Notes under the pieces: model-generated
Database searches by the model: none
What the model was told of the DNA's origin: nothing
Seen by the model: the letters and a program-made list of their open reading frames with translations, nothing else
DNA from: Alistipes sp.
GTDB taxonomy: Bacteria; Bacteroidota; Bacteroidia; Bacteroidales; Rikenellaceae
Assembly: GCA_031285345.1 (NCBI GenBank)
Contig: JAITWI010000008.1
Location: forward strand, 36,111 to 100,110
Direction: 5' to 3'
Length of the DNA stretch: 64,000 bases
Part shown: positions 3,528 through 50,377 of the stretch, piece by piece
Position numbering within the stretch: the stretch's first letter is position 1
How the letters are laid out: every line of letters begins with the position of its first letter
Translations under genes and position numbers: made by a program

Positions 3528-4802
3528 ATGAGTAACGACGCGGCAAAAAGTTGGACCTGGCGCCCCGGTGGCGACCGTGCGTTGTGGGGAATAATCCTCA
3601 TATTGGCGGTGGTGTCGGTGGTGGTGGTCTACTCGTCGACGGGCGCGGCGGCTTTCAGCGGCGGCAGACTCGAAGGCAGCCACCTGAACGTGCTGATACG
3701 ACAGGCCGGCATAGTGGCGATGGGTCTGGTGGCGATCTACGCGATCCACAAGATCAACTATCAGGTCTACGGGCGCATGGTGTGGTTTCTGTATTCGCTG
3801 GCGCTCGTGTTCACCGTCATGGTCTATTTTATCGGCGAGGTCAACCCGGCGGCCCCCGACGCCCCGAGGTGGATCCGGATACCGATCATCAACTTCACAT
3901 TCCAGCCCTCCGACTTTCTGAAGGTGGCCACAGTGATGGTGGTGGCTCGCGAACTTGCCCGCCGCCAGAAGACCATAGCCGGGGAGGATGTGATCCCGCC
4001 GCTCACTTCGCGCGCGTGGCGCGAACGCAAGGGGGCGCGAACCCTGGTCGAAACCACCATGCCGATCGTGGCGCCGATCATACTTTCGTGCGGGGTTATA
4101 CTGCCGGCCAACCTTTCGACGGCGCTGATTCTGTTCGCCACCTGCTTCGTGGTGCTGTTCATCGGGCGGGTGCGTGTTCGCGAACTTGTGCGGATGGTGA
4201 TGGTTTTGGCGTTGTTGGCGGCTTTGGCTGTCGGATTTTTGTACGCCATCGGTCGGCCGCCCAAGCGAATGGAGACCTGGGTGGGTCGCTTCGAAAGGTT
4301 CGCGGCGGCCGACGGCACGGTCGACACCTATCAGGTCGACCAGGCGGCCATAGCCATAGCGGCCGGCAAACTTGCGGGTCGCGGAGCCGGAGGCAGCATC
4401 CAGAGGGGTCTTCTTCCCGACGCCGAGAGTGACTACGCCTATGCGTTCATAATCGAGGAGTACGGTTCGATCTTCGGCGGATTGATAGTGTTGATGTACG
4501 TCTGGATATTTTTCCGGGGCATAGCCATTTTCCGAAAGTGCGGCACCGCGTTCCCGAGCCTGTTGGTGCTGGGGCTTGCGCTGCTCATCACGCTTCAGGC
4601 GCTGGTCAACATGATGGTCTCGACCGACATGATCCCCTCAACGGGGGTGGCGCTGCCGCTCATATCCAAGGGCGGCTCTTCGGAGTTGTTCCTGTCGTGC
4701 GCTCTGGGAATGATGCTGGGTGTGAGCCGCCAGACGGGCGAAAAAACGTTGGATAAACCGCGGGCGGAGTCGCTGCTCGAAATAAATCGTACCGAAAAAT
4801 GA
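3528..4802 (+). CDS. ftsW: FtsW/RodA/SpoVE-family peptidoglycan glycosyltransferase (cell division FtsW)
   Basis: 424-aa multi-pass membrane protein with the SEDS motifs ESDYAYAFIIEEYG and PSTGVALPLISKGGSS. It sits in the dcw position between murD and murG. Confidence 0.92.
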   Translation: MSNDAAKSWTWRPGGDRALWGIILILAVVSVVVVYSSTGAAAFSGGRLEGSHLNVLIRQAGIVAMGLVAIYAIHKINYQVYGRMVWFLYSLALVFTVMVYFIGEVNPAAPDAPRWIRIPIINFTFQPSDFLKVATVMVVARELARRQKTIAGEDVIPPLTSRAWRERKGARTLVETTMPIVAPIILSCGVILPANLSTALILFATCFVVLFIGRVRVRELVRMVMVLALLAALAVGFLYAIGRPPKRMETWVGRFERFAAADGTVDTYQVDQAAIAIAAGKLAGRGAGGSIQRGLLPDAESDYAYAFIIEEYGSIFGGLIVLMYVWIFFRGIAIFRKCGTAFPSLLVLGLALLITLQALVNMMVSTDMIPSTGVALPLISKGGSSELFLSCALGMMLGVSRQTGEKTLDKPRAESLLEINRTEK

Positions 4803-6013
4803 GAATAATTTTAAGCGGCGGCGGCACGGGCGGCCACATATATCCGGCGGTGGCGGTGGCCGAGGCGCTCAAACGCAGACTCGGCGACGATGTCGAGTTG
4901 CTGTTCGTGGGCGCCGCGGGCAAGATGGAGATGGAGAAGATCCCCGCTTTGGGTTACCGGATCGAGGGTCTGCCGACGGCGGGTCTGCACCGTAAGTTGG
5001 ACGCGCGCAACCTGCTGCTGCCGCTGAAGATAGCGCGCAGCCTGCGTATGGCCCGAAAGGTTATAAGAGATTTCGGTGCCGACGCGGTGGTGGGTTTCGG
5101 CGGCTACGCGTCGGGCCCGGTGCTCAGGGTGGCTCAGCGGATGGGCATCCCCACGGTGATTCAGGAGCAGAACTCCTACGCCGGCTTAACCAACAAACTG
5201 TTGGGCAAGCGGGCGCAAAAAATTTGCGTCGCCTACGAAGGCATGGAGCGGTTTTTCCCGCCCGAACGGCGCTCTTCCGCCGGCAGTTCCTCGTCCGCCC
5301 GGCCTTACCGCGTCGCCAACTCCTCGTCCGACCTGCCTTCTGCCTCCGACCGACTTTCCACTGCCGGCCGTATAGAGTTGACGGGCAATCCATTGCGTGG
5401 CGACTTTTCGGTGCAACCCTCGCGCGAGGAGGCGTTGGCGTACTTCGGCTTCACGCCCGACAAACCGGTACTGTTGGTGGTGGGCGGGAGCTTGGGCAGC
5501 CGCACCCTCAACGACATGATGAAGCGCCATGTGGAACGGCTCGCTTCCGACGCCGAAATTCAGGTGATTTGGCAGACGGGCAAGTTCTACGAGACTGAGA
5601 TCGACGGGTTTATGGCCGAAAAGTTCGGCGATGGCAAGCCCGTGCAAAACATCTGGCGCAACAAATTCATCGACCGGATGGACTACGCCTACGCGGCGGC
5701 TGATTTGGTAATTTCGCGCAGCGGCGCCACCACGGTGTCGGAGCTCAGCCTGCTGGGCAAAGCTACGCTGTTCGTGCCCTCGCCCAACGTGTCGGAGGAT
5801 CATCAGACCAAAAACGCTATGGCGCTTGTGGAGCGCGGCGCGGCGGAGATATGTCCCGACTCGATGGCCGTCGAGCGGGCAATTCCGCTGGCGTTGAGGC
5901 TTTTGGGCGATCGCGCGCGCCTCGACGAACTGTCGGCGGGTATTCGCCGTTTGGCCATCGCCGACTCCGCCGACCGGGTGGCCGAAATCGTCACCCGATT
6001 GATAACCGGCTAA
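4799..6013 (+). CDS. murG: undecaprenyldiphospho-muramoylpentapeptide beta-N-acetylglucosaminyltransferase
   Basis: 404 aa with GGGTGGHIYPA, TGNPLR, SRSGATTVSEL and HQTKNA motifs. It carries an extra Ser-rich block of about 33 aa at 5270-5368. Confidence 0.95.
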   Translation: MRIILSGGGTGGHIYPAVAVAEALKRRLGDDVELLFVGAAGKMEMEKIPALGYRIEGLPTAGLHRKLDARNLLLPLKIARSLRMARKVIRDFGADAVVGFGGYASGPVLRVAQRMGIPTVIQEQNSYAGLTNKLLGKRAQKICVAYEGMERFFPPERRSSAGSSSSARPYRVANSSSDLPSASDRLSTAGRIELTGNPLRGDFSVQPSREEALAYFGFTPDKPVLLVVGGSLGSRTLNDMMKRHVERLASDAEIQVIWQTGKFYETEIDGFMAEKFGDGKPVQNIWRNKFIDRMDYAYAAADLVISRSGATTVSELSLLGKATLFVPSPNVSEDHQTKNAMALVERGAAEICPDSMAVERAIPLALRLLGDRARLDELSAGIRRLAIADSADRVAEIVTRLITG

Positions 6014-6041: not shown

Positions 6042-7667
6042 ATGATAAAAAACATATATTTCATCGGCATCGGCGGCATCGGCATGAGCGCGCTGGCTCG
6101 CTATTTCCTCCACAAAGGGGCGCATGTGGCGGGTTACGACCTGACGGAAACCCCTCTTACCAAGGCGCTTGCCAAAGAGGGCGCGGCGATTCACTACGCC
6201 GACGATCCGGCGCTTATTCCGCCCGGGTTTCGCGATCCGGCCACCACCACGGTAGTCTACACCCCAGCCGTGCCGTCCGACCACCGGGAGCTGACGTGGT
6301 TTCGCGAGGGTGGTTTCATGATAGCCAAGCGCGCTGAAATACTGGGAATTATCTCGCGCGACCACTTCACCATGGCCGTCGCCGGCACCCATGGCAAAAC
6401 CACCGTCACCACCCTCACCGCATGGCTAAACCGGGTGCTTTACGACGGCGAAAGCGGGAGCGGCGGCAATGGTAGCTGCAAAGACAGAGGCAATGGCGGC
6501 GGCAGCGCGTTTTTGGGCGGCATTTCCAAAAATTTCGACAGCAACCTTGTCCTCGGAAAGGATGACCGTTTGGTTGTCGAGGCCGACGAGTTATCTCCTT
6601 CACAAGATGCCTCCACCGCCTGCGGCGACGGTCGGCGTTCGGTCGATGAGCTTGCTTGGCAAGGTCGGCCCCGCCTTGTTGTCGAGGCCGACGAGTACGA
6701 CAGATCGTTTTTAAGACTTTCGCCCGACGTGGCGGTCATCACGAGCGCCGATGCCGACCATTTGGACATCTACGGCACCCACGAGGCGGTCAAAGAGGCG
6801 TTCTCGCAGTTCGTGGGTCGCATTTCGCCGACCGGGGCGGTTATTGTCAACAAAAAAGCCGACGTCGCGATCCCCGGCGGGACGCTCGCCAAATACTCCT
6901 ATTCGCTCGACGATCCGGAGACGGACTTCTACGCGGCGAACATCCACGTCCTGCCGAGCGGCCACTATACATTCGACATAGCCACCCCCGATGGCCTCAT
7001 CGAGAAATGCACACTCGGCATCACGGGCAAGATCAACGTCGAGAACAGCGTCGCCGCGGTCGCCCTGATGTGGGCCGCCGCAAAACTCCGCGAAGAACCT
7101 CTCGACGAGGCGAAACTTCGCTCCGGGCTTGCAGACTTCAGCGGGGTCAAAAGGCGCTTCGACATCCACGTCAACACCCCCCCGGCGGTCTACATGGACG
7201 ACTACGCCCACCATCCGGACGAACTTCGCGCCGCGCTCACCTCGCTGCGCGCGATGTTTCCGGGGCGCAGGATCACCGCCGTTTTTCAGCCCCACCTCTA
7301 CTCGCGGACGAGGGATTTCGCCGCCGGGTTCGCGGAGGCGCTATCCAACGCGGACGAGCTCATACTCACCCCCATATACCCGGCGCGCGAAGAGCCGATC
7401 CCCGGCGTCGACTCCGGGACGATCGGCGCACTCGTCAAAAACATCCCCTGGTGTGTGGTGGCTAAAGAGGGGCTCGCCGACGCCATCGCCGCCCGCGACA
7501 CCGATGTGGTGGTGACCTTCGGGGCGGGCAACATCGACAATCATGTCGCCGAGATAGCCCGGGTCGTGAGCCGAAAAGCCGCGACTGTCGGGGAAGAGGC
7601 GGCAGGTAAAGAAACGGTCGAAAAACTCGGAAAATTCGAAAGTCAGAGTAGTGGGCAGAGCGATTAA
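6042..7667 (+). CDS. murC: UDP-N-acetylmuramate--L-alanine ligase carrying an in-frame repeat-element insertion
   Basis: 541 aa with GIGGIGMSALA, GTHGKTT, EADEYDRSF, DADHLDIYG and DYAHHPDE motifs. The frame is intact despite the 105-nt insertion at 6591-6695 and a Gly/Ser-rich block near 6445-6500. Confidence 0.93.
   Translation: MIKNIYFIGIGGIGMSALARYFLHKGAHVAGYDLTETPLTKALAKEGAAIHYADDPALIPPGFRDPATTTVVYTPAVPSDHRELTWFREGGFMIAKRAEILGIISRDHFTMAVAGTHGKTTVTTLTAWLNRVLYDGESGSGGNGSCKDRGNGGGSAFLGGISKNFDSNLVLGKDDRLVVEADELSPSQDASTACGDGRRSVDELAWQGRPRLVVEADEYDRSFLRLSPDVAVITSADADHLDIYGTHEAVKEAFSQFVGRISPTGAVIVNKKADVAIPGGTLAKYSYSLDDPETDFYAANIHVLPSGHYTFDIATPDGLIEKCTLGITGKINVENSVAAVALMWAAAKLREEPLDEAKLRSGLADFSGVKRRFDIHVNTPPAVYMDDYAHHPDELRAALTSLRAMFPGRRITAVFQPHLYSRTRDFAAGFAEALSNADELILTPIYPAREEPIPGVDSGTIGALVKNIPWCVVAKEGLADAIAARDTDVVVTFGAGNIDNHVAEIARVVSRKAATVGEEAAGKETVEKLGKFESQSSGQSD
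6571..6695 (+). mobile_element. Short repeat element copy A (85-nt insert at 6591-6675) flanked by a 20-bp direct duplication of murC sequence (6571-6590 and 6676-6695)
   Basis: The flanking repeats are tggttgtcgaggccgacgag and ttgttgtcgaggccgacgag. The insert core gatgcctccaccgcctgcggcgacggtcggcgttcggtcgatgagc matches the reverse complement of 49298-49397 with a few mismatches. Confidence 0.75.
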
Positions 7668-10234: not shown

Positions 10235-11866
10235 ATGAACAACATACTCAAAGGTTTGGCTCTGGACGAGGTGACGCGCTCGATAATAATGGTGGCGGGA
10301 GTGGGCGGTGCGGGCGGCAACGCCCTCAACCACATGGTGGAGATGGGCATCAACGACGTCACCTTTCTGGCGACCAACACCGACGCCCAGGCGCTCGAAA
10401 AGAGTCTGGCTCAGATCAAAATTCAGTTGGGCAGCGGCTTGGGGGCGGGCAACATGCCCGAGTTAGGTCAGCAGGCGGCTAAAGAGAGCATCGACGACAT
10501 AATCAACGTGTTCCGCACCGAGGGAACGAAGATGCTCTTCATAACGGCGGGAATGGGTGGCGGCACCGGCACCGGGGCGAGTCCCATCATCGCCCGCGCG
10601 GCGCGTGAACTCGACATTTTGACGGTCGCCATCGTCACCACCCCGTTTACGGACGAGGGGCCCGTTCGCACTATGCAGGCCCGAGCGGGTATCGAAGAGC
10701 TACGGCAATACACCGACTCCCTGCTGGTGCTGAGCAACGACAGCATCGCCGAACTCTATCCCGATCTGCCCTACGACGAGGGGTTCGGCAAGGCCGACGA
10801 CGTGCTGGCCACGGCGGTGAAGGGCATCGCCGAGATAATCACCGGCCACGGCACAGTCAACGTCGACTTCAAGGACGTCAACACCGTGATGAGGGGCAGC
10901 GGCCGCGCGTTCATGGGCTCGGCTCGTGCCGCCGGATCCGACAGAGCTCTGGAGGCGGTCGAATCGTCGGTCACATCGCTGCTGCTCAACCACAGCGACA
11001 TCAAGGGCGCCAAAGATATTCTGCTCAACATAAGCTACGGCGACAGGACGGTCACCCAGCGGGAGGCGAGCACAATCCGCGGCTACCTTCAGGAGCGCAC
11101 CGGCTGGACGGCCAACCTTATTTGGGGAACGGCCCACAAGGAGTCGCTGGGCGAAGACCTTGAACTGACCATCATCGCCACCGGTTTTCCCGGAGGAGCC
11201 GACGAGGTGGTGTCCGTGCCGCCGCCCCGTCCCGCCGCGGTGCAATCGGGGGCTTTGCTGCCGGGGGCCGACTTCGATGGCGAGGCTGAGTTCGGCGACG
11301 AGCCCCGTGGAGAGTCGAGCCGTGCGGCGGATACGCATGTCAATCGCGTGGCGGAGGTCGCGGCCGATGCCATGGCCTCCGGTTCTACGGATGGTGGCCG
11401 CCAGACCGACCATGTCGGCGCGCGGATATACACCCCGCAACCCGACCCCGTTTCCGCCGGCGCGTCGGCGCGGGAAAGCCATGCCGGTCGCGAATCCCAC
11501 ATAGGTCGAGAGGCTTACGCCGCCCGGGAGTCCCTCGTCGGTCGACCGCGGTCGACCACTACGTCGACAGCCCCGACCCCCGCATCGCCTGGAACCGGAA
11601 CCGGAGTCAGAGCCGGAGCAGGAGCCGCTCCCGTGGCACCTCGCGCGGGCACCGTGCAGTGGAGGGGCAAAGACCGCTACGTGGATATCGACAACCTCGC
11701 CTCGACCCCCGCGTGGGTGCGGCGCAAAGCCAAACTGACCAATCCGTACGAAGGCAGGCCGGCGGGCAAGGCGGCGCTCAAAGATTCGCACAAAGAGGCG
11801 GCATCCGGAGCGAGCGACCAAGAAACGGACGAGACCCCAAAGTCGCAACCCTCGACGCTGTTCTAA
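10235..11866 (+). CDS. ftsZ: cell division GTPase FtsZ with a long disordered linker and tail
   Basis: GVGGAGGNALNHM and the tubulin signature FITAGMGGGTGTGASP are present. A conserved C-terminal peptide-like DIDNLASTPAWVRRK is encoded at 11678-11737. Confidence 0.96.
   Translation: MNNILKGLALDEVTRSIIMVAGVGGAGGNALNHMVEMGINDVTFLATNTDAQALEKSLAQIKIQLGSGLGAGNMPELGQQAAKESIDDIINVFRTEGTKMLFITAGMGGGTGTGASPIIARAARELDILTVAIVTTPFTDEGPVRTMQARAGIEELRQYTDSLLVLSNDSIAELYPDLPYDEGFGKADDVLATAVKGIAEIITGHGTVNVDFKDVNTVMRGSGRAFMGSARAAGSDRALEAVESSVTSLLLNHSDIKGAKDILLNISYGDRTVTQREASTIRGYLQERTGWTANLIWGTAHKESLGEDLELTIIATGFPGGADEVVSVPPPRPAAVQSGALLPGADFDGEAEFGDEPRGESSRAADTHVNRVAEVAADAMASGSTDGGRQTDHVGARIYTPQPDPVSAGASARESHAGRESHIGREAYAARESLVGRPRSTTTSTAPTPASPGTGTGVRAGAGAAPVAPRAGTVQWRGKDRYVDIDNLASTPAWVRRKAKLTNPYEGRPAGKAALKDSHKEAASGASDQETDETPKSQPSTLF
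11471..11542 (+). repeat. Four imperfect 18-bp in-frame tandem repeats in the ftsZ linker (RESHAG/RESHIG/REAYAA/RESLVG)
   Basis: Read directly from the sequence: cgggaaagccatgccggt, cgcgaatcccacataggt, cgagaggcttacgccgcc, cgggagtccctcgtcggt. Confidence 0.8.
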
Positions 11867-21014: not shown

Positions 21015-22625
21015 TCAACTTTCAATCTCGTCGAGACATCCGACTATAATTTGGCAGCACTCGCGAATCTCGGCCTCGGTGATTGTGAGCGGCGGCGAGA
21101 TGCGAAATGCCGTGTCGCAAAACAGAAACCAGTCGCTCACCACGCCGCGGGCGACGAAAAGCTCCATCAGACGATACATTTTCGCGCTGTTGCCCAACTC
21201 GACCGCTATCAGCAGACCTGCTCTGCGTATTTCGACCACCGCCGGATGCACACCTATAACCTCCTCGAACATAGCGCCTTTCGACTCCACCTTCGACAGC
21301 ACGCTGCCACCCAGCCCCGTCCCTTTAGCCTCGACCTCCGACAGCACGCTGCCGTTCGCTCCGATGGCCCGAGAACCGTCCCGCACCAAAAACTCCAACG
21401 CCGCCAACCCCGCCGCGCAGCACACCGGATGGCCGCCGAAAGTGGTGATGTGCCCCAACGCCGGGTCGTGCGACAGCAGCGACATCAATTCGTTAGAAGC
21501 GATGAACGCCCCCAGAGGCATCCCGCCCCCGAACGCCTTCGCAAGACACAAAATATCGGGCACAACCGTTCCGCCACCGTCGGCCGCACCGGCCTCAGAA
21601 CTTTCTCCGTCGACCTTTGAGTCGCCGGTCGCACCGGCCCCCGAACAGCCCGAACCGGCCCCCGAACCGCCAGAATAGCTCGCACCCGGAAGCCCCAAAC
21701 GCCCCGCCTGCTCGAAAGCGAACAGCGTTCCGGTGCGCCCCATTCCGGTTTGAATCTCGTCGAAAATCAGCAGCGCGCCCGTCTCGTCGCACCGGCGGCG
21801 CAGAGCGGCCAAAAATCCGGGCGCAGGAAGACGCACCCCCGCCTCGCCCTGCACCGGTTCGACGACAACGCACGCCGTGGCCTCGGTGATGCGCGACAGC
21901 GACGAGAAGTCGTTGAATGTCAGCCAATCCACATCTGATAATAGCGGCTCGAACGGCGTCCTCCACTCATCGCCCTCGGGCGACGACATGAGCGACAGCG
22001 CGCCGTGGGTCGAGCCGTGGTATGCCCGCCGAAACGCCAAAATCTCGCGCCTCGCGGTCGAGTCCATGCCTTTCGAAACCCGTTCCCGCGCCGCCCGTTT
22101 GGCAAGTTTGAGCGCCCCCTCAATGGCTTCGGCGCCGGAATTCACAAAGTAAACCGACTGCAACGATGCACCCCTCGAACCGGCCGCCGCCGAGCTCACT
22201 GCTGCGCCCGAACATTCAGCCGCCGCCCCCTCGCAAGAAGCCCGCAAAACCTCGGCCAACCGCGCGGCGTAACGCACCTGCGGCGCCAATACCATCTCGC
22301 CGTAAACCATTGTGTGCATGAAGCTTGCGGCTTGCGCCCGCACTGCTTCAACTACCTCCGGATTGCCATGCCCGACGTTGGACACCGACACCCCGGACAC
22401 CAAATCGAAATATCTTCTGCCGCCCCCCGGCACATCCCCGGTCGATGCGTCTTCACTCGGCGTACACCCACTCGGCGCGCCACCTCCCGGCATGTCCTCC
22501 CTCGATGCGTCGGAACCCTCCGGAGCGTAAAAAAACACCCCCTCGGCTCGTTCGATCTCGATGGCCAGGGGCGAGGGCGACGTCTGCGCCACATGCTCCA
22601 AAAACTGTTGCCTCAATATTTTCAT
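21015..22625 (-). CDS. class-III (acetylornithine/ornithine-type) pyridoxal-phosphate aminotransferase with four low-complexity insertions
   Basis: Motifs SGVSVSNVGHGNPEV, NSGAEAIEGALKLA, LIFDEIQTGMGRTG and DILCLAKAFGGGMPLGAF (PLP lysine) are present. The ATG at 22625 was chosen over the upstream start. Confidence 0.88.
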   Translation of the reverse strand: MKILRQQFLEHVAQTSPSPLAIEIERAEGVFFYAPEGSDASREDMPGGGAPSGCTPSEDASTGDVPGGGRRYFDLVSGVSVSNVGHGNPEVVEAVRAQAASFMHTMVYGEMVLAPQVRYAARLAEVLRASCEGAAAECSGAAVSSAAAGSRGASLQSVYFVNSGAEAIEGALKLAKRAARERVSKGMDSTARREILAFRRAYHGSTHGALSLMSSPEGDEWRTPFEPLLSDVDWLTFNDFSSLSRITEATACVVVEPVQGEAGVRLPAPGFLAALRRRCDETGALLIFDEIQTGMGRTGTLFAFEQAGRLGLPGASYSGGSGAGSGCSGAGATGDSKVDGESSEAGAADGGGTVVPDILCLAKAFGGGMPLGAFIASNELMSLLSHDPALGHITTFGGHPVCCAAGLAALEFLVRDGSRAIGANGSVLSEVEAKGTGLGGSVLSKVESKGAMFEEVIGVHPAVVEIRRAGLLIAVELGNSAKMYRLMELFVARGVVSDWFLFCDTAFRISPPLTITEAEIRECCQIIVGCLDEIES

Positions 22626-22718
22626 AGAATATTCCTCAGAAATAGCCTGAAAAACAGACCAAAAACTTTTACAACAAAATTCCGGCAATTTCTTAATTAA
22701 GTTGCCGGAAATGTCCAA

Positions 22719-23813
22719 CTATTTCCTGTATTTACCGTCCTCTTCGAGCATTTTCAGGTAGCTCATGTAGCGTTCGTCGGCTATGGCACCCTCTTCGACG
22801 GCTCGCACCACGGCGCATCCGGGCTCGTGTGTGTGTGTGCAGTTATAGTATTGGCAGTCAGATGAAAATCGCATCAGATCGGGGAAATATCGACACAATT
22901 CGTCGGCTGAAATGTCGATTAGCCCAAACCCCTTGATGCCCGGCGTGTCGATAATGTAGCCTCCGCCTCCGGAACTCGTCGACCCACTGCCCGAATCGGA
23001 ACCCGCGCCGTCCGAGGCGATATCGGTATTAGGAAGGCCGTCCAACAGATACATCTGCGAAAATGTGGTGGTGTGCATCCCCTTTCCGTGGGAGCGTGAC
23101 ACCTCGCCGACGCGGATTTCGAGCCCGGGCGACACCGCACCCACGAGGGTCGATTTGCCGACGCCCGAATTGCCCGAGACCAGCGTCGTGCGCCCCCGCA
23201 AAAACTCGCGAACCTCCTCCACGCCGAGACCCGTGCGAGCCGACGCGAAAATCACCCGATAGCCCGCCCCGCGATATATCGCCGCGAATCGTTCCATCGC
23301 CTCCTCGCCGCCATCCGTCGCGAGCACCAAATCTACTTTATTGAGCAAAATCGTAGCCGGAACGCCATATGCCTCGCACGTCACCAGAAATCGGTCGATG
23401 AATTCGGTCGGTGTCGCGGGCGACGCCAGCGTGGCCACCACCAGCGCCTGATCGACGTTGGCGGCAATGATGTGACTCTCGCGCGACAGGTTCGACGCCC
23501 GTCGGATTATGTAGTTGCGCCGCGGCCCTATCGCCTCGATCCACACCTCTTTCGCGCTCTGATCCGAGCTCGCGCCCGAACCTGCGCCCGAACCTGCGCC
23601 GCCGCCCGCGCCCGCGCCCGAACTGCCGCCAATGGCCTCGATCGAGCACTCCACCGCGTCGCCCACCACCACGGGATTGGTTGCCCTCGACCCGGCGAGC
23701 CGCAACCGTCCCCTGAGCCGCGCGCTGAAAATCTCTCCCTCCGCCGTTCGCACCTCATACCAACTCCCGGTCGAACGCGTCACTACCGCCGTAAATCGTC
23801 CCTCGACAACCAT
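22719..23813 (-). CDS. rsgA: ribosome small-subunit-dependent GTPase A
   Basis: Motifs LLNKVDL, P-loop GNSGVGKSTL, and the C-terminal zinc knuckle CQYYNCTHTHEPGCAV are present. There are two Gly/Ser/Ala insertions. Confidence 0.92.
   Translation of the reverse strand: MVVEGRFTAVVTRSTGSWYEVRTAEGEIFSARLRGRLRLAGSRATNPVVVGDAVECSIEAIGGSSGAGAGGGAGSGAGSGASSDQSAKEVWIEAIGPRRNYIIRRASNLSRESHIIAANVDQALVVATLASPATPTEFIDRFLVTCEAYGVPATILLNKVDLVLATDGGEEAMERFAAIYRGAGYRVIFASARTGLGVEEVREFLRGRTTLVSGNSGVGKSTLVGAVSPGLEIRVGEVSRSHGKGMHTTTFSQMYLLDGLPNTDIASDGAGSDSGSGSTSSGGGGYIIDTPGIKGFGLIDISADELCRYFPDLMRFSSDCQYYNCTHTHEPGCAVVRAVEEGAIADERYMSYLKMLEEDGKYRK
23572..23630. repeat. 12-bp in-frame tandem repeat array inside rsgA (gcgcccgaacct x2, then degenerate units)
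   Basis: Read directly from the sequence. It encodes the GAGSGAGSGA-type insertion. Confidence 0.75.
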
Positions 23814-27512: not shown

Positions 27513-28727
27513 TCAATTCTCGACCCACACCCCGTCGGCCTTCAATAACTCTACAAGTGCGTCTAAAGCCTCGGCCTGAGGAACGCCGCGCCGCACAACC
27601 TCGCGCCCGCGATAGAGCGTGATCATTCCCGGATCGGCCCCCACATATCCGTAGTCGGCGTCGGCCATCTCGCCAGGTCCGTTGACGATGCAGCCCATAA
27701 CGGCGATCTTCAACCCCGGCAGATGACCCACGGCGGCCTTGATCTCGTCCAACACGGGCGATAGGGCGTACAGCGTCCGCCCGCAACCGGGACAGGCTAT
27801 GAATTCGGTTCTCGAACGATCCAACCCGCAAGCCTGCAAAATCGCCCGCGCCACATCAATCTCGTTCTCGGGCGGCTCGGTGAGCGAAACTCGGATGGTG
27901 TCGCCCAGCCCCTCGGTGAGCAGCGCGCCTATGCCGACGGCCGACTTCACGCGCCCTTCAAGTCCGTTTCCGGCCTCGGTAACTCCTAAGTGCAGAGGGA
28001 AATGCATGTCTTCCGCATCCATCGCCGCCACCAATTCGCGATACGCGGCCACCATCACGCGCGTGTTAGACGACTTCATCGACACCACCACCTGCGAGAA
28101 GTCGCGCTCGCGGCAAACCCGCAAAAACTCCATCGCCGAAGCCACCATCCCGGCCGGCGTGTCGCCATATTGCTCGACGATCCGCCGCGCCAGCGACCCG
28201 TGGTTGACCCCTATCCTTATGGCCGTGCCCGTTTCGCGGCATTTGTCCACAAGTTCGGCGAAATTGCCGCCCGCCATTTCGGCGAGCCTCGGCGACTCCG
28301 CCTCTTTTCCATCCGCCGCTCGGTCGATGAAATAGTTACCCGGATTGATGCGCACCTTGTTCACCACCCCCGCAAGTGCCATTGCCACAGCGGGTTGAAA
28401 ATGCACGTCGGCCACCAGTGCTACGTCGGGCCACAGCGAGCGCACCCGCCGGGCGATCTCCGTCATAGACTCCACTTCGCGTATTCCCTGCGTGGTGAGG
28501 CGCACAACGCGGCACCCGGCGTCGCGCAACCGCCCGATCTGCGCCACAGAAGCCTCCACATCATTCGTATCGGTGTCGGTCATCGACTGTACCGCCACGG
28601 GATTCATCGCCGCCGCACTCGGAACCGCGCCCGCCGACGAAACAGCCGCCGCATCCCAACCGCCACCTATCGTCACCGGGCCTATGCGCACCGCCACGGT
28701 CTTTCGCCGTCCTAAAAACGCTCCCAT
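27513..28727 (-). CDS. ispG: 4-hydroxy-3-methylbut-2-en-1-yl diphosphate synthase
   Basis: Motifs VAVQSMTDTDTNDV, VRLT, RINPGN, IRIGVNHGSL, CPGCGRT and VMGCIVNGPGE are present. The ATG at 28727 lies 2 nt downstream of the porin gene stop. Confidence 0.92.
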   Translation of the reverse strand: MGAFLGRRKTVAVRIGPVTIGGGWDAAAVSSAGAVPSAAAMNPVAVQSMTDTDTNDVEASVAQIGRLRDAGCRVVRLTTQGIREVESMTEIARRVRSLWPDVALVADVHFQPAVAMALAGVVNKVRINPGNYFIDRAADGKEAESPRLAEMAGGNFAELVDKCRETGTAIRIGVNHGSLARRIVEQYGDTPAGMVASAMEFLRVCRERDFSQVVVSMKSSNTRVMVAAYRELVAAMDAEDMHFPLHLGVTEAGNGLEGRVKSAVGIGALLTEGLGDTIRVSLTEPPENEIDVARAILQACGLDRSRTEFIACPGCGRTLYALSPVLDEIKAAVGHLPGLKIAVMGCIVNGPGEMADADYGYVGADPGMITLYRGREVVRRGVPQAEALDALVELLKADGVWVEN

Positions 28728-28729
28728 AC

Positions 28730-30604
28730 TCAAAACACCATTTCGATTCCCGCCATCACGTTTGCCCCGCGCCCGCGGTAATAGGGCCACGGATAGAGTT
28801 TGTGTCCCCCCAACCCGGCCAGATTGCGCCCCTCGACGAACACCCAAAAGTCGGACTGCACCCTGAACTCCACCTCCAGCGACACGTCCGCCACTGTGGG
28901 GATCGTCACCCCTTTTAAAAAATGCGATTCCAACGAAGGAGACAAGTAATACGTTTCTGTTCTAAACCTCCTCTTGCCTGTTACCTCGACCCCGGCCTTA
29001 ATCCTAAAAACATCCTTATGCGAATAGGATACCTCCGCTCCCGCGTCGAATTCGGGAAGCCCCGGCAAGACCGACAAACTCCATTCGTAATAGGAGTCGG
29101 AGCCCCACGCATCGTCGGGCAAATCATACGACACATAATCCACTTCCGGTCTGAGCTCATGCGTATAGACGTTGCCGTAGAGGCGCGCCGAGAATCCGCC
29201 CACATTGCGCAGCCCAAACTCCGCCCCCGCGGTATACCGCCGACCCCTCATCGCCACGGGATTGAACGTCATGGGCCTGTATAGGTCGCCATACTCGGGG
29301 CACATGATGTTGTAGTCGCGCAGCAACGACGCACCGCCCGAGAGCCGATAGGTAAACACGCCGCCCACGTCGCCCTCGAAACCCATCAGCGCATCGGTTG
29401 CAAGCCCCGTCGCCCCGTAGGTCGTCACATAGGGATTCGTGCGCGACAAGGCCTCCATACTGCCGTCCACAATCCGCGACGACACCCTTGCGAAAGGCAC
29501 GAACCGCCCGCCGGCCACGTCGTAGCTTAACTCCAAAGCGGGACGCAGCCTCACCCCGTCCTGCCCGTAATATTGATTGTAGACGTAGTAGAGGTCGCCC
29601 CCCACGCGCAGCCTGAGTCCGCCTGTCGACAGGTCGTAGCGCACGGCGACCGATGCCGACGAAAAACGGTTGTCCGCTTCGTTGGTAGTAATGGACGCCG
29701 TATTATCGTAAACTTCCGCGTAGTGTTTGCCCATTCGCCCCCTGAACTCGGCTTCGAGCGCGTGTCCCGTTCTCAACTCCCGACCGAGTCGCAAACTCAA
29801 CTCACCGTCGGCCTGCGAAGGACGATACATGTGGCCGATCCGGTAGTACGACGAATCAAAAACTCGGATATCGTTCCTTCGGGTGTATCCTCCGTCGAGC
29901 CCGACGTGGAAGTTGAGACGCGACAGGTCGGTGAAGTCGTCGCCGAAGCCGACGTTTCCGCCCACTCTGTTCCACGATGCCGTCATCCACTCGAAGCTAC
30001 TATCGTCCGGAACCTCATCCGTACCATACATATCATACCTCCTGTGGGTATACGACACATCGCCCTTGAGTTCGTAGCGAGCCCAACGCCGCGAGCCCCA
30101 CAGCCCCACACCGTTGTACGTCTCCGTCGCGTCGGCCTTGACGCCGAAATCGTTACGCAGCTTCGAGTACGCCCCCCGGTGGTTGACATACAGCCCCAGC
30201 GAACTTCCGGCGGCCATCCGCGGCGTGAAGTAGAGGTCGAGCGTGCTTTGCAGCGGCAACCCCAGCCCCGCCCGAAGGTAGAGCGGCCGCCCCGGATCCC
30301 ACCGCGCCGTCGACACACTTGCCGGCTCGAAAGCCCTGACCTCGAACGACACAGGCCCGGCGACGGGCGTGATTCTATACGTCACCTCGGGCCTGAGCCT
30401 CACCGTGTCCGTCATATTGGGTTCTATGGGCAGCTTTCCGGCCGGCCCGACATTCGGCGTGTACTCCCGAGTCACCTCCAACCGCCTGTCGAGCCCCTCA
30501 GGAGCCTGAGTTTGGGTCTGAGCTTGGACTTGGACTTGAGCCGAACCCCGCGCCGAAATCGTGGCGACCGCCATTAACACCGATGCGACAACTATTATTC
30601 TCAT
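28730..30604 (-). CDS. outer-membrane beta-barrel protein (Bacteroidota putative-porin type)
   Basis: It has a signal peptide ending SARGSAQ, a long run of alternating amphipathic strands, and the C-terminal aromatic GIEMVF. Confidence 0.7.
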   Translation of the reverse strand: MRIIVVASVLMAVATISARGSAQVQVQAQTQTQAPEGLDRRLEVTREYTPNVGPAGKLPIEPNMTDTVRLRPEVTYRITPVAGPVSFEVRAFEPASVSTARWDPGRPLYLRAGLGLPLQSTLDLYFTPRMAAGSSLGLYVNHRGAYSKLRNDFGVKADATETYNGVGLWGSRRWARYELKGDVSYTHRRYDMYGTDEVPDDSSFEWMTASWNRVGGNVGFGDDFTDLSRLNFHVGLDGGYTRRNDIRVFDSSYYRIGHMYRPSQADGELSLRLGRELRTGHALEAEFRGRMGKHYAEVYDNTASITTNEADNRFSSASVAVRYDLSTGGLRLRVGGDLYYVYNQYYGQDGVRLRPALELSYDVAGGRFVPFARVSSRIVDGSMEALSRTNPYVTTYGATGLATDALMGFEGDVGGVFTYRLSGGASLLRDYNIMCPEYGDLYRPMTFNPVAMRGRRYTAGAEFGLRNVGGFSARLYGNVYTHELRPEVDYVSYDLPDDAWGSDSYYEWSLSVLPGLPEFDAGAEVSYSHKDVFRIKAGVEVTGKRRFRTETYYLSPSLESHFLKGVTIPTVADVSLEVEFRVQSDFWVFVEGRNLAGLGGHKLYPWPYYRGRGANVMAGIEMVF

Positions 30605-41552: not shown

Positions 41553-42908
41553 TCAGTGCCGCGAAGGGGTGGTCAGCAGCGCGAGGGCTTCGCCGACTAC
41601 GTAGTTGCTGCCGCCGATGTAGATCATGTCTTGAGATCCGGCCGATTCGCGGGCGAGGGCGATGGCCGCGGCGACACATTCGGCCGCCTCTTTGGATGGG
41701 AAAGCGGCGAAACGCGACATCAGTTTTTCGACGGGCATCGAGCGGCTGTTGTCGGCGCGGGTGAGGATATAACGGGCGTCGGCGGGCAGCAGCGGCAGGA
41801 TGGAATCGAGATCCTTGTCGCCCGCGAATCCCAACACCATGTGGAGTTCGCCGCCGGGCCGCGACTCCATGCGGTTGGCGATCTGCCTAACTATCTCGCT
41901 AAGGCCGTGTGCGTTGTGCGCGGTGTCGAGCACTACTAACGGTTCGTTGCCGACGACCTGCCAGCGACCTTTTAAGCCGGTCAGGGCGGCGGCGTTTTCG
42001 AGCCCGGCGCGCAGTGCCGTTCCCGAAATAACAAACCCTGTCGAACGCAAAACATCGACCGCCACGAGCACCGTGCGCACATTTTTTTGCTGGTAATCAC
42101 CGCCCAAATCCAATTGAAAACTATCGGCAGGGATATTTCTATCGGCGGGGGCATTTTTGTCGGCGAAAACGATCGGCGAGTCGACGGCGGCGGCGCTGGC
42201 GCGGAAAACAGGCGCGCTTTCGGGGTCGGTTTCGCCGATGACTACCGGCACTCCCGGCTTTATTATGCCCGCCTTTTCGGCGGCGATCTTGGTTCTCGTA
42301 TCGCCCAGGTACTGAGTGTGTTCGAGGCCTATATTGGTGATTATGGATAGCGCCGGCACTATGATGTTGGTCGAGTCCAACCGTCCGCCCAAACCCGCCT
42401 CGATTATCGCCACGTCGCAACCTCGACCCGAATCCGAATCCGAATCCGAATCCGAATCGAAACCGCATACGCCACCCGAATCCGAATCCTCGCCAAAACC
42501 TTCGCCCCCCGCGAACCACCAGAGCGCCATGGCGGTGGCCATCTCGAAGAAAGTCAGCCCAAGAACCACCATCTCGTCGTGCCATCGGGCGGCGAACCAC
42601 ACCACCGCCGACTCGGGTATCATGTCACCGTCCACGCGGATGCGCTCGCGAAAATCGACCAGGTGCGGCGAGGTGAACAGCCCCACGCGATAGCCCGCCG
42701 ACTGAAGCACCGCCGCAAGCATGTGCGAGGTCGAGCCCTTGCCGTTGGTGCCGGCCACGTGTATGGTCGTGAGGCGGTTATGCGGATTACCGATCGCGTC
42801 GAGGAACGCCTCTATGCGCTCCAGACCGGGCTTATATGCCGCCGCCCCCTTCTGCTCCCACACGGGCAGCGAGGCGAACATAAATTCGAGAGTCTCGGGG
42901 TAGGTCAC
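41553..42908 (-). CDS. folC: bifunctional folylpolyglutamate synthase / dihydrofolate synthase
   Basis: The P-loop HVAGTNGKGST and the motif IIEAGLGGRLDSTN are present in a Mur-ligase fold. The start is GTG. A (DS)n insertion is present. Confidence 0.9.
   Translation of the reverse strand: MTYPETLEFMFASLPVWEQKGAAAYKPGLERIEAFLDAIGNPHNRLTTIHVAGTNGKGSTSHMLAAVLQSAGYRVGLFTSPHLVDFRERIRVDGDMIPESAVVWFAARWHDEMVVLGLTFFEMATAMALWWFAGGEGFGEDSDSGGVCGFDSDSDSDSDSGRGCDVAIIEAGLGGRLDSTNIIVPALSIITNIGLEHTQYLGDTRTKIAAEKAGIIKPGVPVVIGETDPESAPVFRASAAAVDSPIVFADKNAPADRNIPADSFQLDLGGDYQQKNVRTVLVAVDVLRSTGFVISGTALRAGLENAAALTGLKGRWQVVGNEPLVVLDTAHNAHGLSEIVRQIANRMESRPGGELHMVLGFAGDKDLDSILPLLPADARYILTRADNSRSMPVEKLMSRFAAFPSKEAAECVAAAIALARESAGSQDMIYIGGSNYVVGEALALLTTPSRH
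42428..42489. repeat. hexanucleotide microsatellite (ccgaat)x5 plus a second short block, in frame inside folC (encodes DSDSDSDSDS)
   Basis: Read directly: ccgaatccgaatccgaatccgaatccgaat at 42428-42457 and ccgaatccgaatcc at 42476-42489. Confidence 0.85.
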
Positions 42909-49259: not shown

Positions 49260-49434
49260 AATCCCCCACTTGTAGTACATAGCGCCCCAGGTGAACCGAG
49301 CGTCGCAGATGCGAGCTCATCGACCGAGCGCCGAGCGTCGCCGCAGGCGGTGGAGGCATCGTGTGAGGGAGTAACTAACACATAGATGAGGGTCTATAAT
49401 CCCCACTTGTAGTACATAGCGCCCCAGGTGAACC
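49260..49434 (-). mobile_element. Short repeat element copy B (100-nt insert at 49298-49397) flanked by a 37-38-bp direct duplication of the fabH 3' end (49260-49297 and 49398-49434)
   Basis: aatccccc(c)acttgtagtacatagcgccccaggtgaacc occurs twice with a single C indel. The insert is the reverse complement of the murC insert plus an extra 24 nt. Confidence 0.75.
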
Positions 49435-50377
49435 CCGCGCCGAACGCCGATATTATGAGGTTGTCGCCGCGCTTGAAACGGTCGCGGAACTCCCACAAAA
49501 CCAACGGAATGGAGGTGCCGGCCGTGTTGCCAAGGTGCTCTATGTTGACAAGTATTTTGTCGTCCGACAGACCCATCCGGTGGCCGGTGGCCGACAGAAT
49601 GCGCAGGTTGGCCTGGTGGGGGATCAGATAGGCGATGTCGTCGGGCTTTAGGCCGTGCCTTGCCATCATCGCCACCGACACGTCGGCCATGTTGCTGACC
49701 GCGTATTTGAACACCGTTTTGCCGTCCTGAATGATGTAGTGCTCGCGGCGGGCCACCGTCTCGGCCGAGGCGGGGTACATGCTGCCGCCAGCCTTCTGGT
49801 ATAGATAGTGGCGACCGATGCCGTCCACGTGGTTTTCGTAGTCCACAAGGCCCTCGTCCGGAGAGTCTGTCGGCTCGATGAGCATAGCCACCGCCGCGTC
49901 GCCGAACAGCGGACAGGTGTTGCGGTCGGTGTAGTCGGTGATGCCGCTCATCCTCTCGCCGCACACCAACACCACCTTTTTAGCCCGGCCGGCGCGAACC
50001 AAGGCGTCGACGGTGGAGAATGAGTAGATGAAGCCGCAGCAGCCGGCGTTGACGTCGAATCCCCAGGCGTTTTTGATGCCCACCTTGTCGGAGATTATGT
50101 TGGCCGTGGCGGGGAACTGCATGTCGGGCGTGACGGTGGCGCACACCAACATGTCCACCTCCTCGGGTTTGGTGCCCGTGGCGGCCAAGAGTTTACGAAC
50201 CGCGTCGGCTCCCATTTCGGAGGTGCCCAAACCGTCCTGCTTGAGGATGCGGCGCTCGACTATGCCGGTGCGCTCGCGGATCCACTCGTCCGACGTGTCG
50301 ACCAACTTTTCTATCTCGGCGTTGGTGAGGATGTACTCCGGAAGCGACGCCTCTATACCTTTTATTACTGCTCTCAT
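49394..50377 (-). CDS. fabH: 3-oxoacyl-ACP synthase III
   Basis: The active-site Cys context is NAGCCGFIYS. Motifs HQANLRI and GNTAGTSIP are present. The last codon and the stop codon are contributed by the repeat-element junction. Confidence 0.94.
   Translation of the reverse strand: MRAVIKGIEASLPEYILTNAEIEKLVDTSDEWIRERTGIVERRILKQDGLGTSEMGADAVRKLLAATGTKPEEVDMLVCATVTPDMQFPATANIISDKVGIKNAWGFDVNAGCCGFIYSFSTVDALVRAGRAKKVVLVCGERMSGITDYTDRNTCPLFGDAAVAMLIEPTDSPDEGLVDYENHVDGIGRHYLYQKAGGSMYPASAETVARREHYIIQDGKTVFKYAVSNMADVSVAMMARHGLKPDDIAYLIPHQANLRILSATGHRMGLSDDKILVNIEHLGNTAGTSIPLVLWEFRDRFKRGDNLIISAFGAGFTWGAMYYKWGL

Follow-up and report, generated by a model that had tools for sequence, protein, structure and literature searches.

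A short, dispersed insertion element with long target duplications, in frame in an essential murC gene and recurring in other Alistipes-like genomes

This analysis concerned an 85-nt insert in the murC gene of the window, by which we mean the whole 64-kb stretch of Alistipes DNA that was analysed. The insert belongs to a family of dispersed insertion elements that are non-autonomous and have a unit of about 60-69 nt; members were found in several genomes of Alistipes/Rikenellaceae-like bacteria, the majority of them from termite guts. Beyond the two clear copies in the window, in murC and fabH, it was found at eight further loci in termite-gut and related metagenomes (Table 1). Unrelated genes and also non-coding DNA contain near-identical cores, which lie in either orientation and in three reading frames, each flanked by its own duplication, and cores from different genes and species share 83-95% identity. 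A preliminary description of this DNA had proposed that a dispersed short element lies in frame within a conserved MurC motif, EADE(Y/F)D, and that a long duplication retains the complete motif; this is borne out by the copies elsewhere, in different genes and genomes, all of which have a flanking duplication of their own.

Table 1. Features of the element copies, their host genes and related loci (coordinates are those of the window)
Feature	Coordinates	Strand	Details
murC (UDP-N-acetylmuramate--L-alanine ligase)	6042..7667	+	541 aa, intact ORF; hosts element copy 1
Upstream target copy, murC	6566..6591	+	R-L-V-V-E-A-D-E plus T; exact part 6573-6591; residues 176-183, extra looped-out motif
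Element core, murC copy	6591..6650	+	60 nt, sense orientation, TTATCTCCTTCACAAGATGCCTCCACCGCCTGCGGCGACGGTCGGCGTTCGGTCGATGAG; nhmmer E=4e-17
Central hairpin, murC copy	6620..6638	-	CCGTCGCC-GCA-GGCGGTGG; 8-bp stem, two G.T/G.U pairs, GNA triloop
Variable tail, murC copy	6651..6670	+	cttgcttggcaaggtcggcc
Downstream target copy, murC	6671..6696	+	RLVVEADEY, functional motif; residues 211-219; aligns with all orthologues and solved MurC structures
MurC peptides within or across the predicted 35-aa addition			ADELSPSQ; GRPRLVVEADEY
Probable decayed element remnant	28317..28335	+	antisense to ispG; 18/20 match, ttcatcgaccgagcggcgga; nhmmer E about 0.6
Distal target copy, fabH	49264..49305	-	former C-terminus ...FTWGAMYYKWGI-stop, now untranslated
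Variable tail, copy 2	49298..49315	-	ctcgcatctgcgacgctc
Element core, copy 2	49316..49374	-	59 nt; sense relative to fabH but beyond its stop; nhmmer E=1.9e-14
Extra partial copy of element fixed end, fabH	49375..49400	-	attatagaccctcatctatgtgttag; ahead of the full copy; gives fabH a new L-stop
fabH (3-oxoacyl-ACP synthase III)	49394..50377	-	hosts element copy 2; PF08541, PF08545
Gene-proximal target copy, fabH	49401..49442	-	34/34 exact at 49401-49434; 39/42 overall; encodes ...FTWGAMYYKWG
Eight further loci			L018/L035; L039/L040; L041 (two copies); L042; L043 (two copies); L044; L048 (five units); L049

A database protein identical to the murC product (P0001) carries all three Mur-ligase domains in Pfam (PF01225, PF08245 and PF02875), solved MurC structures match it with E=2.7e-58 in a PDB alignment that begins at query residue 212, and the E-A-D-E-x-D motif of the nucleotide-binding domain is intact and in register with those structures. 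Exactly as described earlier, the 85-nt insert (6591-6675) lies between tggttgtcgaggccgacgag at 6571-6590 and ttgttgtcgaggccgacgag at 6676-6695, with a repeat period of 105 nt and a single open murC frame. A target duplication is indeed present, but it is 19-26 nt long rather than strictly 20 bp, as the direct repeat extends to 26 nt with 23 identical positions and an exact part of 19. It covers the entire RL(A/V)VEADE strand, and because the insertion duplicates so long a stretch of target, a complete enzyme motif is restored behind the insert, the native motif being rebuilt by the downstream copy. This explains how a hit in an essential catalytic motif can be survived, the rest becoming a loop, and it offers selfish DNA a direct route for adding surface segments to core enzymes.

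An AlphaFold2 model of the protein (mean pLDDT 88) bears on the earlier question whether the insert loops out. Residues 211-215 form a strand in the model and the downstream-copy block reaches a pLDDT of about 91, while values lie below 50 across residues 177-200; the downstream motif copy is thus predicted to occupy the native MurC strand, with the remainder looped out. The upstream copy and the insert together make up a 35-residue surface loop, at a site that tolerates many insertions in the clade. Most MurC orthologues lack the 35 residues: the 25-residue segment is uninterrupted in 42 of 66 related MurC proteins, which represent empty sites, and in many relatives the loop at this position is variable, many different insertions being tolerated there within the clade.

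An identity matrix puts the murC core at 92-93% identity with copies from other genes and genomes. Its tail, cttgcttggcaaggtcggcc, is specific to the murC insertion, and the orthologous insertions of L043 and L044 show 72-80% conservation of it; the second half looks like a re-copied piece of the core (ggtcggc). The possibility that this tail belongs to a longer, full-length element was considered and rejected, since beyond about 7-9 nt only the murC orthologues have it.

The recurrence of the core on the other strand had also been recognised before. It proved to lie at the 3' end of fabH (49298-49400, minus strand), and the complementary arms (6595-6655 and 49311-49371) were found to be 61 nt long and 92% complementary. 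A 25-mer and a 24-mer from the element each have two matches in the window, against 0.00 expected from shuffles. This second copy is real, but its perfect 34-nt target duplication had gone unnoticed. The direct repeat stops 26 nt before the start of the core, and the last two codons and the stop codon of fabH now lie within inserted sequence. The ctgcgacgctc(gg) stretch in the tail of this copy re-copies part of a segment of the core, ctgcggcgacgctcgg.

A third site in the window, in ispG (27513-28847, minus strand), is probably a decayed remnant of the element. The sequence match at 28317..28335 is weak by itself, and its position, in the loop after RINPGNY, is the one at which recognisable copies occur in the ispG genes of L018, L042, L048 and L049. 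Many IspG orthologues have only a minimal loop there and represent empty sites. An insert in the MurG of the window showed no significant similarity to the element, either by nhmmer profile or by alignment.

Elsewhere, in-frame copies were found in ispG, uvrD/pcrA and a DUF1573 gene, with all frames open, as in murC. Another copy lies directly beyond a murC stop codon, and L048 includes an intergenic head-to-tail array. L018 and L035 come from independent assemblies and are 99.9% identical, with two differences. Between L018 and the window, the orthologous host DNA shares only about 70-73% identity; the insertions in L043 and L044 stem from different sequencing projects. The comparisons drawn here are based on only about 8-10 independent insertion events.

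Broader searches suggest that public protein data contain few members of the family, since a six-frame peptide search yielded only three further in-frame copies. The 30-aa insert peptide, compared with 1.84 billion representative proteins, matched a single spurious repetitive protein. An exact 21-mer scan of GTDB representative genomes gave 16 matches, all of them chance matches of 21-23 nt in high-GC phyla, and the species of the window is apparently absent from that collection. The same scan of metagenome contigs gave 22 matches, of which just L018 and L035 were genuine, and three pattern scans of viral contigs returned one chance match (L046) and no real copy. Neither a master locus nor a source RNA gene was found in the genome, metagenome and viral contig scans. 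No Rfam family was found for the window or for the insert even at E<=10, nor any match pointing to derivation from a known small RNA (tRNA, 7SL, 5S). One further candidate, P0132/L050, was suspected from its 'MPPPA' to be a sense-oriented copy and turned out to be a different, hairpin-rich repeat.

The two ends of the element behave differently. The fixed end (TTAYCTCCCTCRCAAG...), from which a core of about 60 nt runs, always adjoins a T or TT of the target, and at every independent site the duplicated target extends 1-3 nt (T, TT or ATT) into the element start. Insertion is always beside ...TT, and the target often reads CGNARTT. The opposite end is variable, with tails of 3-27 nt that often re-copy parts of the core. 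Target duplications measure 7, 9, 12, 14-17, 19-26, 28 and 34-42 nt, an overall range of 7-42 nt, with matches of 19/19 (23/26) in murC, 34/34 in fabH, 28/28 in uvrD (L041), 13/14 in ispG and 24/26 in L044; in L048 the duplication, AATTACGAG, is present three times. As a control for chance, the best flanking direct-repeat score was taken at 300 sites of matching geometry placed at random in the window, giving a mean of 6.8, a 95th percentile of 9 and a maximum of 14.5. The observed values of 19 (murC), 34 (fabH) and 28 (uvrD, L041) exceed these, and all the duplications listed are well above the control. Terminal inverted repeats are absent. The ends of the 85-nt copy have no inverted similarity; TTATCTCCYTC... 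showed none to ...GGTCGGCCCCGCC (murC) or to ...GATGAR with the variable tails, and a repeat search gave no local inverted pair at the element ends.

The element had been described as having no evident palindromic structure. This is correct in that it has neither terminal inverted repeats nor a long palindrome, but 14 of 15 members contain a conserved, covarying hairpin of 6-8 bp with a GNA triloop, which pairs fully only on the antisense strand; DNA mini-hairpins with loops of this type are known to be very stable. In the hairpin alignment, which took the best hairpin of each copy and is to that extent biased towards structure, 96% of cells are paired, both sides have changed in all seven pairs (7/7), and wobble pairs occupy 20 of 84 stem cells (24%), where the sense strand would have A.C. 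Whole copies fold no better than their shuffles (z from -0.3 to -1.5). The antisense strand, which carries the hairpin, is also the one predicted as template from the asymmetry of the junctions.

The insertion footprint looks more like copy-and-paste, in the manner of SINEs, than that of any known bacterial miniature transposon. The reading we lean towards, with somewhat less than even confidence, is that this non-autonomous element spreads by copying rather than by cut-and-paste, through target-primed synthesis from a single-stranded template that would be structured, of antisense polarity and made of RNA or ssDNA. A nick would leave a 3' end ...(CGNAR)TT, which would pair with the 3' end of the template (...GGGAGRUAA) and be extended, so that one junction is fixed and has 1-3 nt of microhomology. 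Stuttering or jumping of the polymerase near the 5' end of the template would generate tails of 3-27 nt in which parts of the core are copied again, and a break of the second strand at a variable distance would produce a duplication of variable length. The hairpin with its GNA triloop would be the handle by which the enzyme recognises its template, and a reverse transcriptase is the most plausible candidate. Neither the 64-kb window nor the fetched flanks contain a gene for a reverse transcriptase, transposase or integrase, and the proposed mechanism is drawn from the insertion footprints. Mutagenesis of adenines of the DGR type was considered and set aside, as differences between copies are ordinary transitions and not A-specific.

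A stronger version of target-primed copying is possible but rather doubtful: the element would be a true retroposon of prokaryotes, whose short, structured RNA with its antisense hairpin would be reverse-transcribed into the nicked chromosome, leaving a SINE-like footprint and repeatedly seeding loops in essential enzymes. Eukaryotic SINEs and LINEs, which move by target-primed reverse transcription, have variable target duplications, microhomology at T-rich targets, template jumps and structured RNAs recognised by the enzyme. The element resembles them in its variable duplications, in having one precise end with target microhomology and another that is truncated, template-jumped or carries extra nucleotides, in its adjacent old and young copies, and in its structured RNA, which is a prediction here. 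It differs from them in that its end, ...GGGAGRTAA, has two A's only and no poly(A) or A-rich tail, and in that no polymerase III promoter boxes were identified and no partner reverse transcriptase was found here. Insertion of the SINE/LINE type is not known in bacteria, for which target-primed retroposition that duplicates its target is not established either; if target-primed copying is right, a mechanism thought to be essentially eukaryotic would be acting on a bacterial chromosome.

A related possibility is that the inserted DNA is cDNA from a retron- or DRT-like system, the product of which occasionally integrates. DRT2, whose biology is the subject of PMC11100668 and PMC12039810, makes concatemeric cDNA through template jumping. 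Shared with retrons and DRT2 would be a short structured non-coding template (as proposed here), the head-to-tail junctions of L048, tails that restart within the unit and a 60-nt unit length open in two sense frames. However, the cDNAs of those systems are not known to integrate into chromosomes, and no such RT/ncRNA locus was seen here, so that the resemblance would be one of analogy only.

Among the alternatives to target-primed copying, templated-insertion repair fares best, though it seems unlikely. By this account no dedicated mobile element is involved; template switching during the repair of breaks or forks (MMBIR/FoSTeS-like, or polymerase-theta-like end joining) would have duplicated local sequence and patched in filler from an unusually available donor. 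The tails and the 5' region of the fabH insertion do resemble repeated template jumps, the junctions have 1-3 nt of microhomology, and these genomes also have, at the same places, pure duplications that lack any insert: a perfect 27-nt tandem duplication in the murC of L047, (AATTACG)n expansions in ispG, and an aminotransferase in the window with a 45-nt duplication and other in-frame expansions. Repair would not readily account for the use of the same 60-nt donor with an identical start nucleotide, at 83-95% identity, at a minimum of six different sites in several genera, and the covarying, strand-specific hairpin and the recurring target motif point instead to specific recognition.

That same hairpin could be recognised by an HUH/Y1 enzyme acting on single-stranded DNA beside a short target motif, which would make the element a PATE derived from IS200/IS605 or a REP/REPIN mobilised by a RAYT. 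This is decidedly unlikely, even though the strand-specific stem with G.T pairs and a GNA triloop, the constant position beside ...TT (often CGNARTT), the intergenic head-to-tail arrays and the missing terminal inverted repeats would all fit. Like REP/REPIN sequences, the element is a short repeat built around a strand-specific hairpin, forms intergenic arrays and is conserved across related species. However, IS200/IS605 and REP elements do not duplicate their target on insertion, whereas the duplications here are long, with up to 34/34 and 28/28 nt matching; REP sequences have GTAG beside the hairpin and are essentially extragenic, whereas this element often lies in coding DNA. It also has a single hairpin instead of sub-terminal hairpins at both ends, one of its ends is variable, and a Y1 transposase was seen in none of the fetched loci.

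A miniature derivative of a DDE insertion sequence is an improbable source. Direct repeats of 8-514 bp, differing in length from copy to copy, in the IS1634/IS1549 group show that a transposase can give long, variable duplications (PMC2266710), and in this the element is similar. Members of that group are, on the other hand, 1.5-2 kb in size with a DDE transposase and inverted ends, while the element measures 60-85 nt and has no ORF, no terminal inverted repeats and a ragged end. Its tail end differs between copies in both sequence and length, partial re-copies of the element lie inside its own insertions, and the window has no transposase. Least credible of all is that nothing moved, with an ancient, lineage-specific MurC loop resembling other loci by chance or convergence, or an assembly artefact: the two closest MurC proteins do share the 35 aa in diverged form and the loop is variable in many relatives, but against this stand near-identical cores with their own duplications in unrelated genes, frames and orientations, and insertions that recur in independent assemblies (L018/L035) and separate projects (L043, L044).

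Short repeats within genes are known from very few bacterial lineages, of which Rickettsia is the classic case; the present host is a gut member of the Bacteroidota, and the footprint is different. Rickettsia palindromic elements are about 150 bp (100-150 bp) long, palindromic and confined to Rickettsia, and lie in frame in housekeeping genes, where the retained peptides are compatible with function (PMC10969869). The element is like them in being short, non-autonomous and in frame in unrelated housekeeping genes whose proteins are kept intact; unlike them, it has a unit of 60-69 nt with only a 6-8-bp central hairpin instead of an extended palindrome, one fixed and one ragged end, and long, variable duplications. 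With bacterial MITEs (Correia/NEMIS, RUP, BOX, ERIC) it shares small size, dispersal, a lack of coding capacity of its own and both genic and intergenic locations, and some MITE members also form in-frame fusions (PMC10969869; also PMC3184786, PMC2229807). MITEs are, however, defined by terminal inverted repeats and a short, fixed-length duplication set by the transposase, both of which this element lacks.

The insertions appear to differ in age. An orthologous murC insertion is found in two other species (P0002/L043 and P0003/L044), with the 85 nt and the duplication boundaries seen in the window, a homologous tail and a diverged core, and because it is common to two species with MurC proteins only 68% identical, the event is old rather than recent. 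The murC core of the window is nevertheless 93% identical to the family consensus, which needs slow decay, gene conversion or re-insertion. That this core must have been refreshed was rejected, as its ungapped identity of 55% to the orthologues becomes 67-73% once gaps are properly placed. With this value, and with 80% identity between the element consensus and the L043 core in a gapped alignment, a single old event with unequal decay is tenable. Both duplication copies in the murC of the window carry the same derived GTT codon, which bears on the same question. While the murC and ispG insertions are old, those in fabH and uvrD have perfect duplications and look young. Insertions that are shared or private in this way provide clean phylogenetic markers for uncultured termite-gut bacteria. 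In the ispG of L048, an older and a younger unit lie next to each other with the same duplication, indicating that one site was used repeatedly.

The insert in murC was confirmed as the preliminary description had given it, in sequence, coordinates and reading, with a target copy on either side, and a single open frame (6042-7667, 541 aa by ORF analysis) runs through all three parts. Protein and domain searches of the product gave three Mur-ligase domains and matches to MurC proteins. When extended, the flanking direct repeat spans 26 nt (6566-6591 versus 6671-6696, 23/26), and its score of 19 compares with a mean of 6.8 and a maximum of 14.5 for the best flanking repeats at 300 random sites of the same geometry. 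The claimed recurrence of the core on the other strand was also found in a repeat search of the window (6595-6655 versus 49311-49371, 61 nt, 92%); 24-25-mers of the core occur twice each there, with zero expected in shuffles.

The second copy lies at the extreme end of fabH, flanked by an exact 34/34-nt duplication (39/42 if extended). The gene-proximal duplication copy retains the coding for ...FTWGAMYYKWG, with an L-stop provided by the insertion, while the distal copy is the original gene ending, now abandoned (...KWGI-stop). A 26-nt partial copy of the element start stands ahead of the full copy, and the tail holds ctgcgacgctcgg, a partial re-copy of the core segment ctgcggcgacgctcgg. The murC and fabH copies share their anatomy, and both are therefore insertions with long target duplications that left the host proteins essentially intact.

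Features of the murC insertion and copies of the element in the window and at other loci
Feature	Location	Strand	Description	Basis
murC upstream target copy	6571-6590	+	tggttgtcgaggccgacgag	direct sequence read
murC insert	6591-6675	+	85 nt	direct sequence read
murC downstream target copy	6676-6695	+	ttgttgtcgaggccgacgag	direct sequence read
fabH copy	49264-49442	-	second copy in the window	gene by Pfam
ispG loop	28317-28335		weak remnant	profile
IspG P0121	L042		insertion same as L018, more diverged	peptide search
UvrD/PcrA P0122	L041		...GTRVMHTK, then LSPSQDASTTCGDGRRSVDEFS, then AGTRVMHTKFGHG; 28/28-nt duplication	peptide search
DUF1573 lipoprotein P0123	L039/L040		in-frame copy	peptide search
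downstream of murC	L043		consensus-like copy directly after the stop codon	profile
uvrD	L041		decayed old antisense copy; young copy 40 nt away	profile
ispG	L048		two adjoining units	profile
ispG	L049		copy read in a third frame	profile
intergenic array	L048, 8283-8487		three diverged units head-to-tail	profile

Further copies are present in other genes and at metagenome loci. An exact 21-mer scan of metagenomes recovered the element from contigs L018 and L035, where it sits in ispG in antisense orientation without breaking the frame (...RINPGNYEVR/STEYSSTERRTSPQAVEASCEG/GNYEVRGG..., slashes marking junctions), here too between two copies of a duplicated target. Contig L018 shares synteny with window positions 25.5-28.8 kb, but DNA identity there is only 70-73%, which makes it a different species; between its element and the window copies, identity is 92-93%. 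Three more in-frame copies were found with six-frame peptides of the element; going by record names, contigs L039, L040 and L042 are from termite-gut metagenome, and for L041 the tool output gave JGI sample 3300042603 and no environment. The remaining copies came from a profile built from known ones, which in the window matched only the murC and fabH copies and the ispG remnant. The intergenic array could be a source locus; its neighbours are a GH2 gene on one side and a short-chain dehydrogenase gene on the other, and a terminator-like hairpin, aaaccgctgtgcggttt, comes after it.

In murC orientation, all copies begin at one point, TTAYCTCCCTCRCAAGATGCC..., and share a 60-nt core ending ...GGTCGATGAG. 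Between the core and the second duplication copy stand tails of 3-27 nt that differ among copies. Some tails open with 7-9 nt that recur (TACTCCGTA in ispG, CCCTCTGTA at the L048 unit junction, TTCTCTG in uvrD), which suggests that the full unit may be about 69 nt; beyond these the tails are event-specific. Target duplications measure 7, 9, 12, 14-17, 19-26, 28 and 34-42 nt. The duplicated target overlaps the first bases of the element by 1-3 nt (T, TT or ATT) at every independent site, and the target sequence immediately ahead of the junction is CG(N)A(R)TT at 7 of the 9 sites, a motif recognised after the fact.

The preliminary description saw no palindromic structure, which holds for the termini, where there are no inverted repeats, but not for the centre, where the antisense strand carries a conserved hairpin. 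A 6-8-bp stem with a GNA triloop occupies the same central position in 14 of 15 family members, and stem sequences vary widely (CGTCGCC/GGCGGTG, CGTCACC/GGTGGTG, GTCAGCC/GGCTGGT, TCGGCT/AGCCGG, GTGCCGC/GCGGCGC). In a 17-column alignment of 17-mers, each the best hairpin picked per copy, 96% of hairpin cells are paired, each of the seven pairs has changed on both sides, and the observed covariation was reached by no shuffle; a less fitted alignment gave a concordant but weaker signal. G.U/G.T pairs make up 20 of the 84 hairpin cells and become A.C mismatches if read on the other strand. Folding energies of whole element copies were unremarkable.

These features (a fixed microhomology end, a ragged re-copied end, variable duplications, no inverted ends and a one-strand hairpin) do not match the footprints of DDE-type MITEs, IS200/IS605-REP elements or integron cassettes. 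Eukaryotic LINE and SINE insertions, in which a single-stranded template is copied from a primed target, leave such features, and target-primed copying of this kind would produce the footprint described here. The template would be the antisense strand, on which two independent lines agree: its 3' end (...GGGAGRTAA) lies at the fixed junction, and the same strand bears the hairpin. The element would then be copied in by a polymerase that recognises the hairpin, most plausibly a reverse transcriptase, a proposal to which we give somewhat less than even chances because no enzyme, master copy or RNA for it was seen. Among four rivals, template-switch repair using a hot donor carries the most weight, as insert-free duplications were found in the same genomes. 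Next comes a single-strand DNA element of HUH/Y1 type, which fits the hairpin and the target motif but is contradicted by the target duplications, and then a MITE of an IS1634-like transposase, a group with documented variable target duplications (PMC2266710), although the inverted ends are absent here. A non-mobile loop or artefact is contradicted by the many copies and independent assemblies.

By outcome, the closest known case is that of the Rickettsia palindromic elements, which are selfish repeats that have become in-frame parts of housekeeping proteins (PMC10969869), but the palindrome that defines them is missing from the present element, which has long variable duplications besides. 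With neither inverted repeats nor a fixed duplication it is not a MITE, and with duplications it is not a REP. It works most like a SINE, membership of which takes an RNA intermediate and a partner enzyme. We rate the element as belonging with intragenic short repeats, a known kind, and see a substantial chance that its mechanism is new for bacteria.

Most related MurC proteins lack the 35 residues. The plain segment LVLGxGxRLAVEADEF is present in 42 of 66 such proteins, and in the other 24 the loop preceding the RLAVEADE strand bears various lineage-specific insertions, but the two closest (P0002 of L043 and P0003 of L044, 68% identical to the window MurC) share the insertion. There it has the same 85 nt, identical duplication boundaries and a homologous tail (72-80%), while the core has diverged (67-73% to the window, gapped; 75-80% to the family consensus), which makes it a single old event that three species have inherited. 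Identity of the window copy to the consensus remains 93%, and a derived GTT codon is common to its two duplication copies; any one of slow decay, re-insertion into the same site or conversion between copies could be the cause. Re-insertion at a used site does happen: in L048 ispG, the same AATTACGAG duplication separates two neighbouring units, one older (34 bits) and one younger (57 bits). Perfect duplications mark the fabH and uvrD events, which look recent.

Alignment with solved MurC structures covers residues 4-127 and resumes at 212, in the downstream motif copy. In the AlphaFold2 model (mean pLDDT 88, pTM 0.86), R211-A216 occupy the native strand (E211-215), and pLDDT falls below 50 at residues 177-200, a stretch covering the upstream copy of LVVEADE and the greater part of the insert. 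Insertion inside EADE^Y is survivable because the duplication takes in the entire strand, beginning in the loop before it; a shorter one would have split the strand. Selection for whole-strand duplication probably also explains a perfect, insert-free 27-nt tandem duplication (AGACTGGCTGTCGAGGCCGACGAGTTC x2) in murC of an unrelated species (L047, a Rikenellaceae-like contig, 10478-10531), which yields RLAVEADEF-RLAVEADEF with almost the boundaries of the element's target duplication. The window MurC has two other lineage-specific additions: a Gly/Ser-rich insertion (YDGESGSGGNGSCKDRGNGGG, 6441-6506, residues about 134-155), missing or shorter in orthologues and with residues 139-151 modelled at pLDDT below 50, and a C-terminal extension of ~25-30 residues (..ATVGEEAAGKETVEKLGKFESQSSGQSD, 7570-7667), which orthologues lack, which overlaps the start of ftsQ (7651) and which is modelled as part of a long terminal helix.

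Insertions are likewise tolerated in the ispG loop that follows RINPGNY; this loop contains, in different lineages, the element, (AATTACG)n expansions or other hairpin repeats, and is a general sink for small repeats. The heptamer AATTACG, the element's ispG target, is expanded to at least four tandem copies (translated SITNYELRIT) at L049 about 430-470 and L050 about 1315-1350 and in IspG proteins P0131, P0136, P0142 and P0155, both with and without the element. Unrelated hairpin-rich repeats stand in frame in the same loop in P0133, P0138 and L050 (1350-1500), with peptides resembling ...SRRSNPE...APRNDD and ...LLRHSVPRNDGE. Compared with L018, the window IspG has 11 extra residues (DAAAVSSAGAV) after IGGG (28650-28700), another lineage-specific in-frame expansion.

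The closest relatives of MurC and IspG carry the labels Alistipes sp. or Rikenellaceae, and the window has a G+C content of 60.6%. Pfam scans of about 40 window ORFs gave only housekeeping genes and no reverse transcriptase, transposase or integrase; the genes include murE-mraY-murD-ftsW-murG-murC-ftsQ-ftsA-ftsZ, ispG, ispH, cmk, lnt, fabH and surface-protein genes. MurG (4799-6013, plus strand) has a 34-residue Ser/Ala/Pro-rich insertion (PERRSSAGSSSSARPYRVANSSSDLPSASDRLST, 5261-5363) between FFP and the conserved (A/G)-(D/R)-RI..TGNPLRG segment, which three aligned orthologues lack and which had no significant similarity to the element in profile searches of the window. A class-III aminotransferase (21018-22718, minus strand) has 567 aa versus 400-410 in orthologues, with five lineage-specific in-frame insertions that include internal direct repeats spaced 21, 45 and 60 nt; one insert has ASCEG, with a weak element-profile match at 22228-22260 (E=1.9), and another, PSEDASTGD, faintly resembles the element's PSQDASTACGD. 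Short tandem repeats within coding regions were also seen as (CCGAAT)n in a Mur-ligase-family gene (41553-42908; repeat at 42415-42489) and as a 12-nt, CCCGAACCTGCG-like repeat close to the start of an rsgA-like gene (repeat at 23564-23630).
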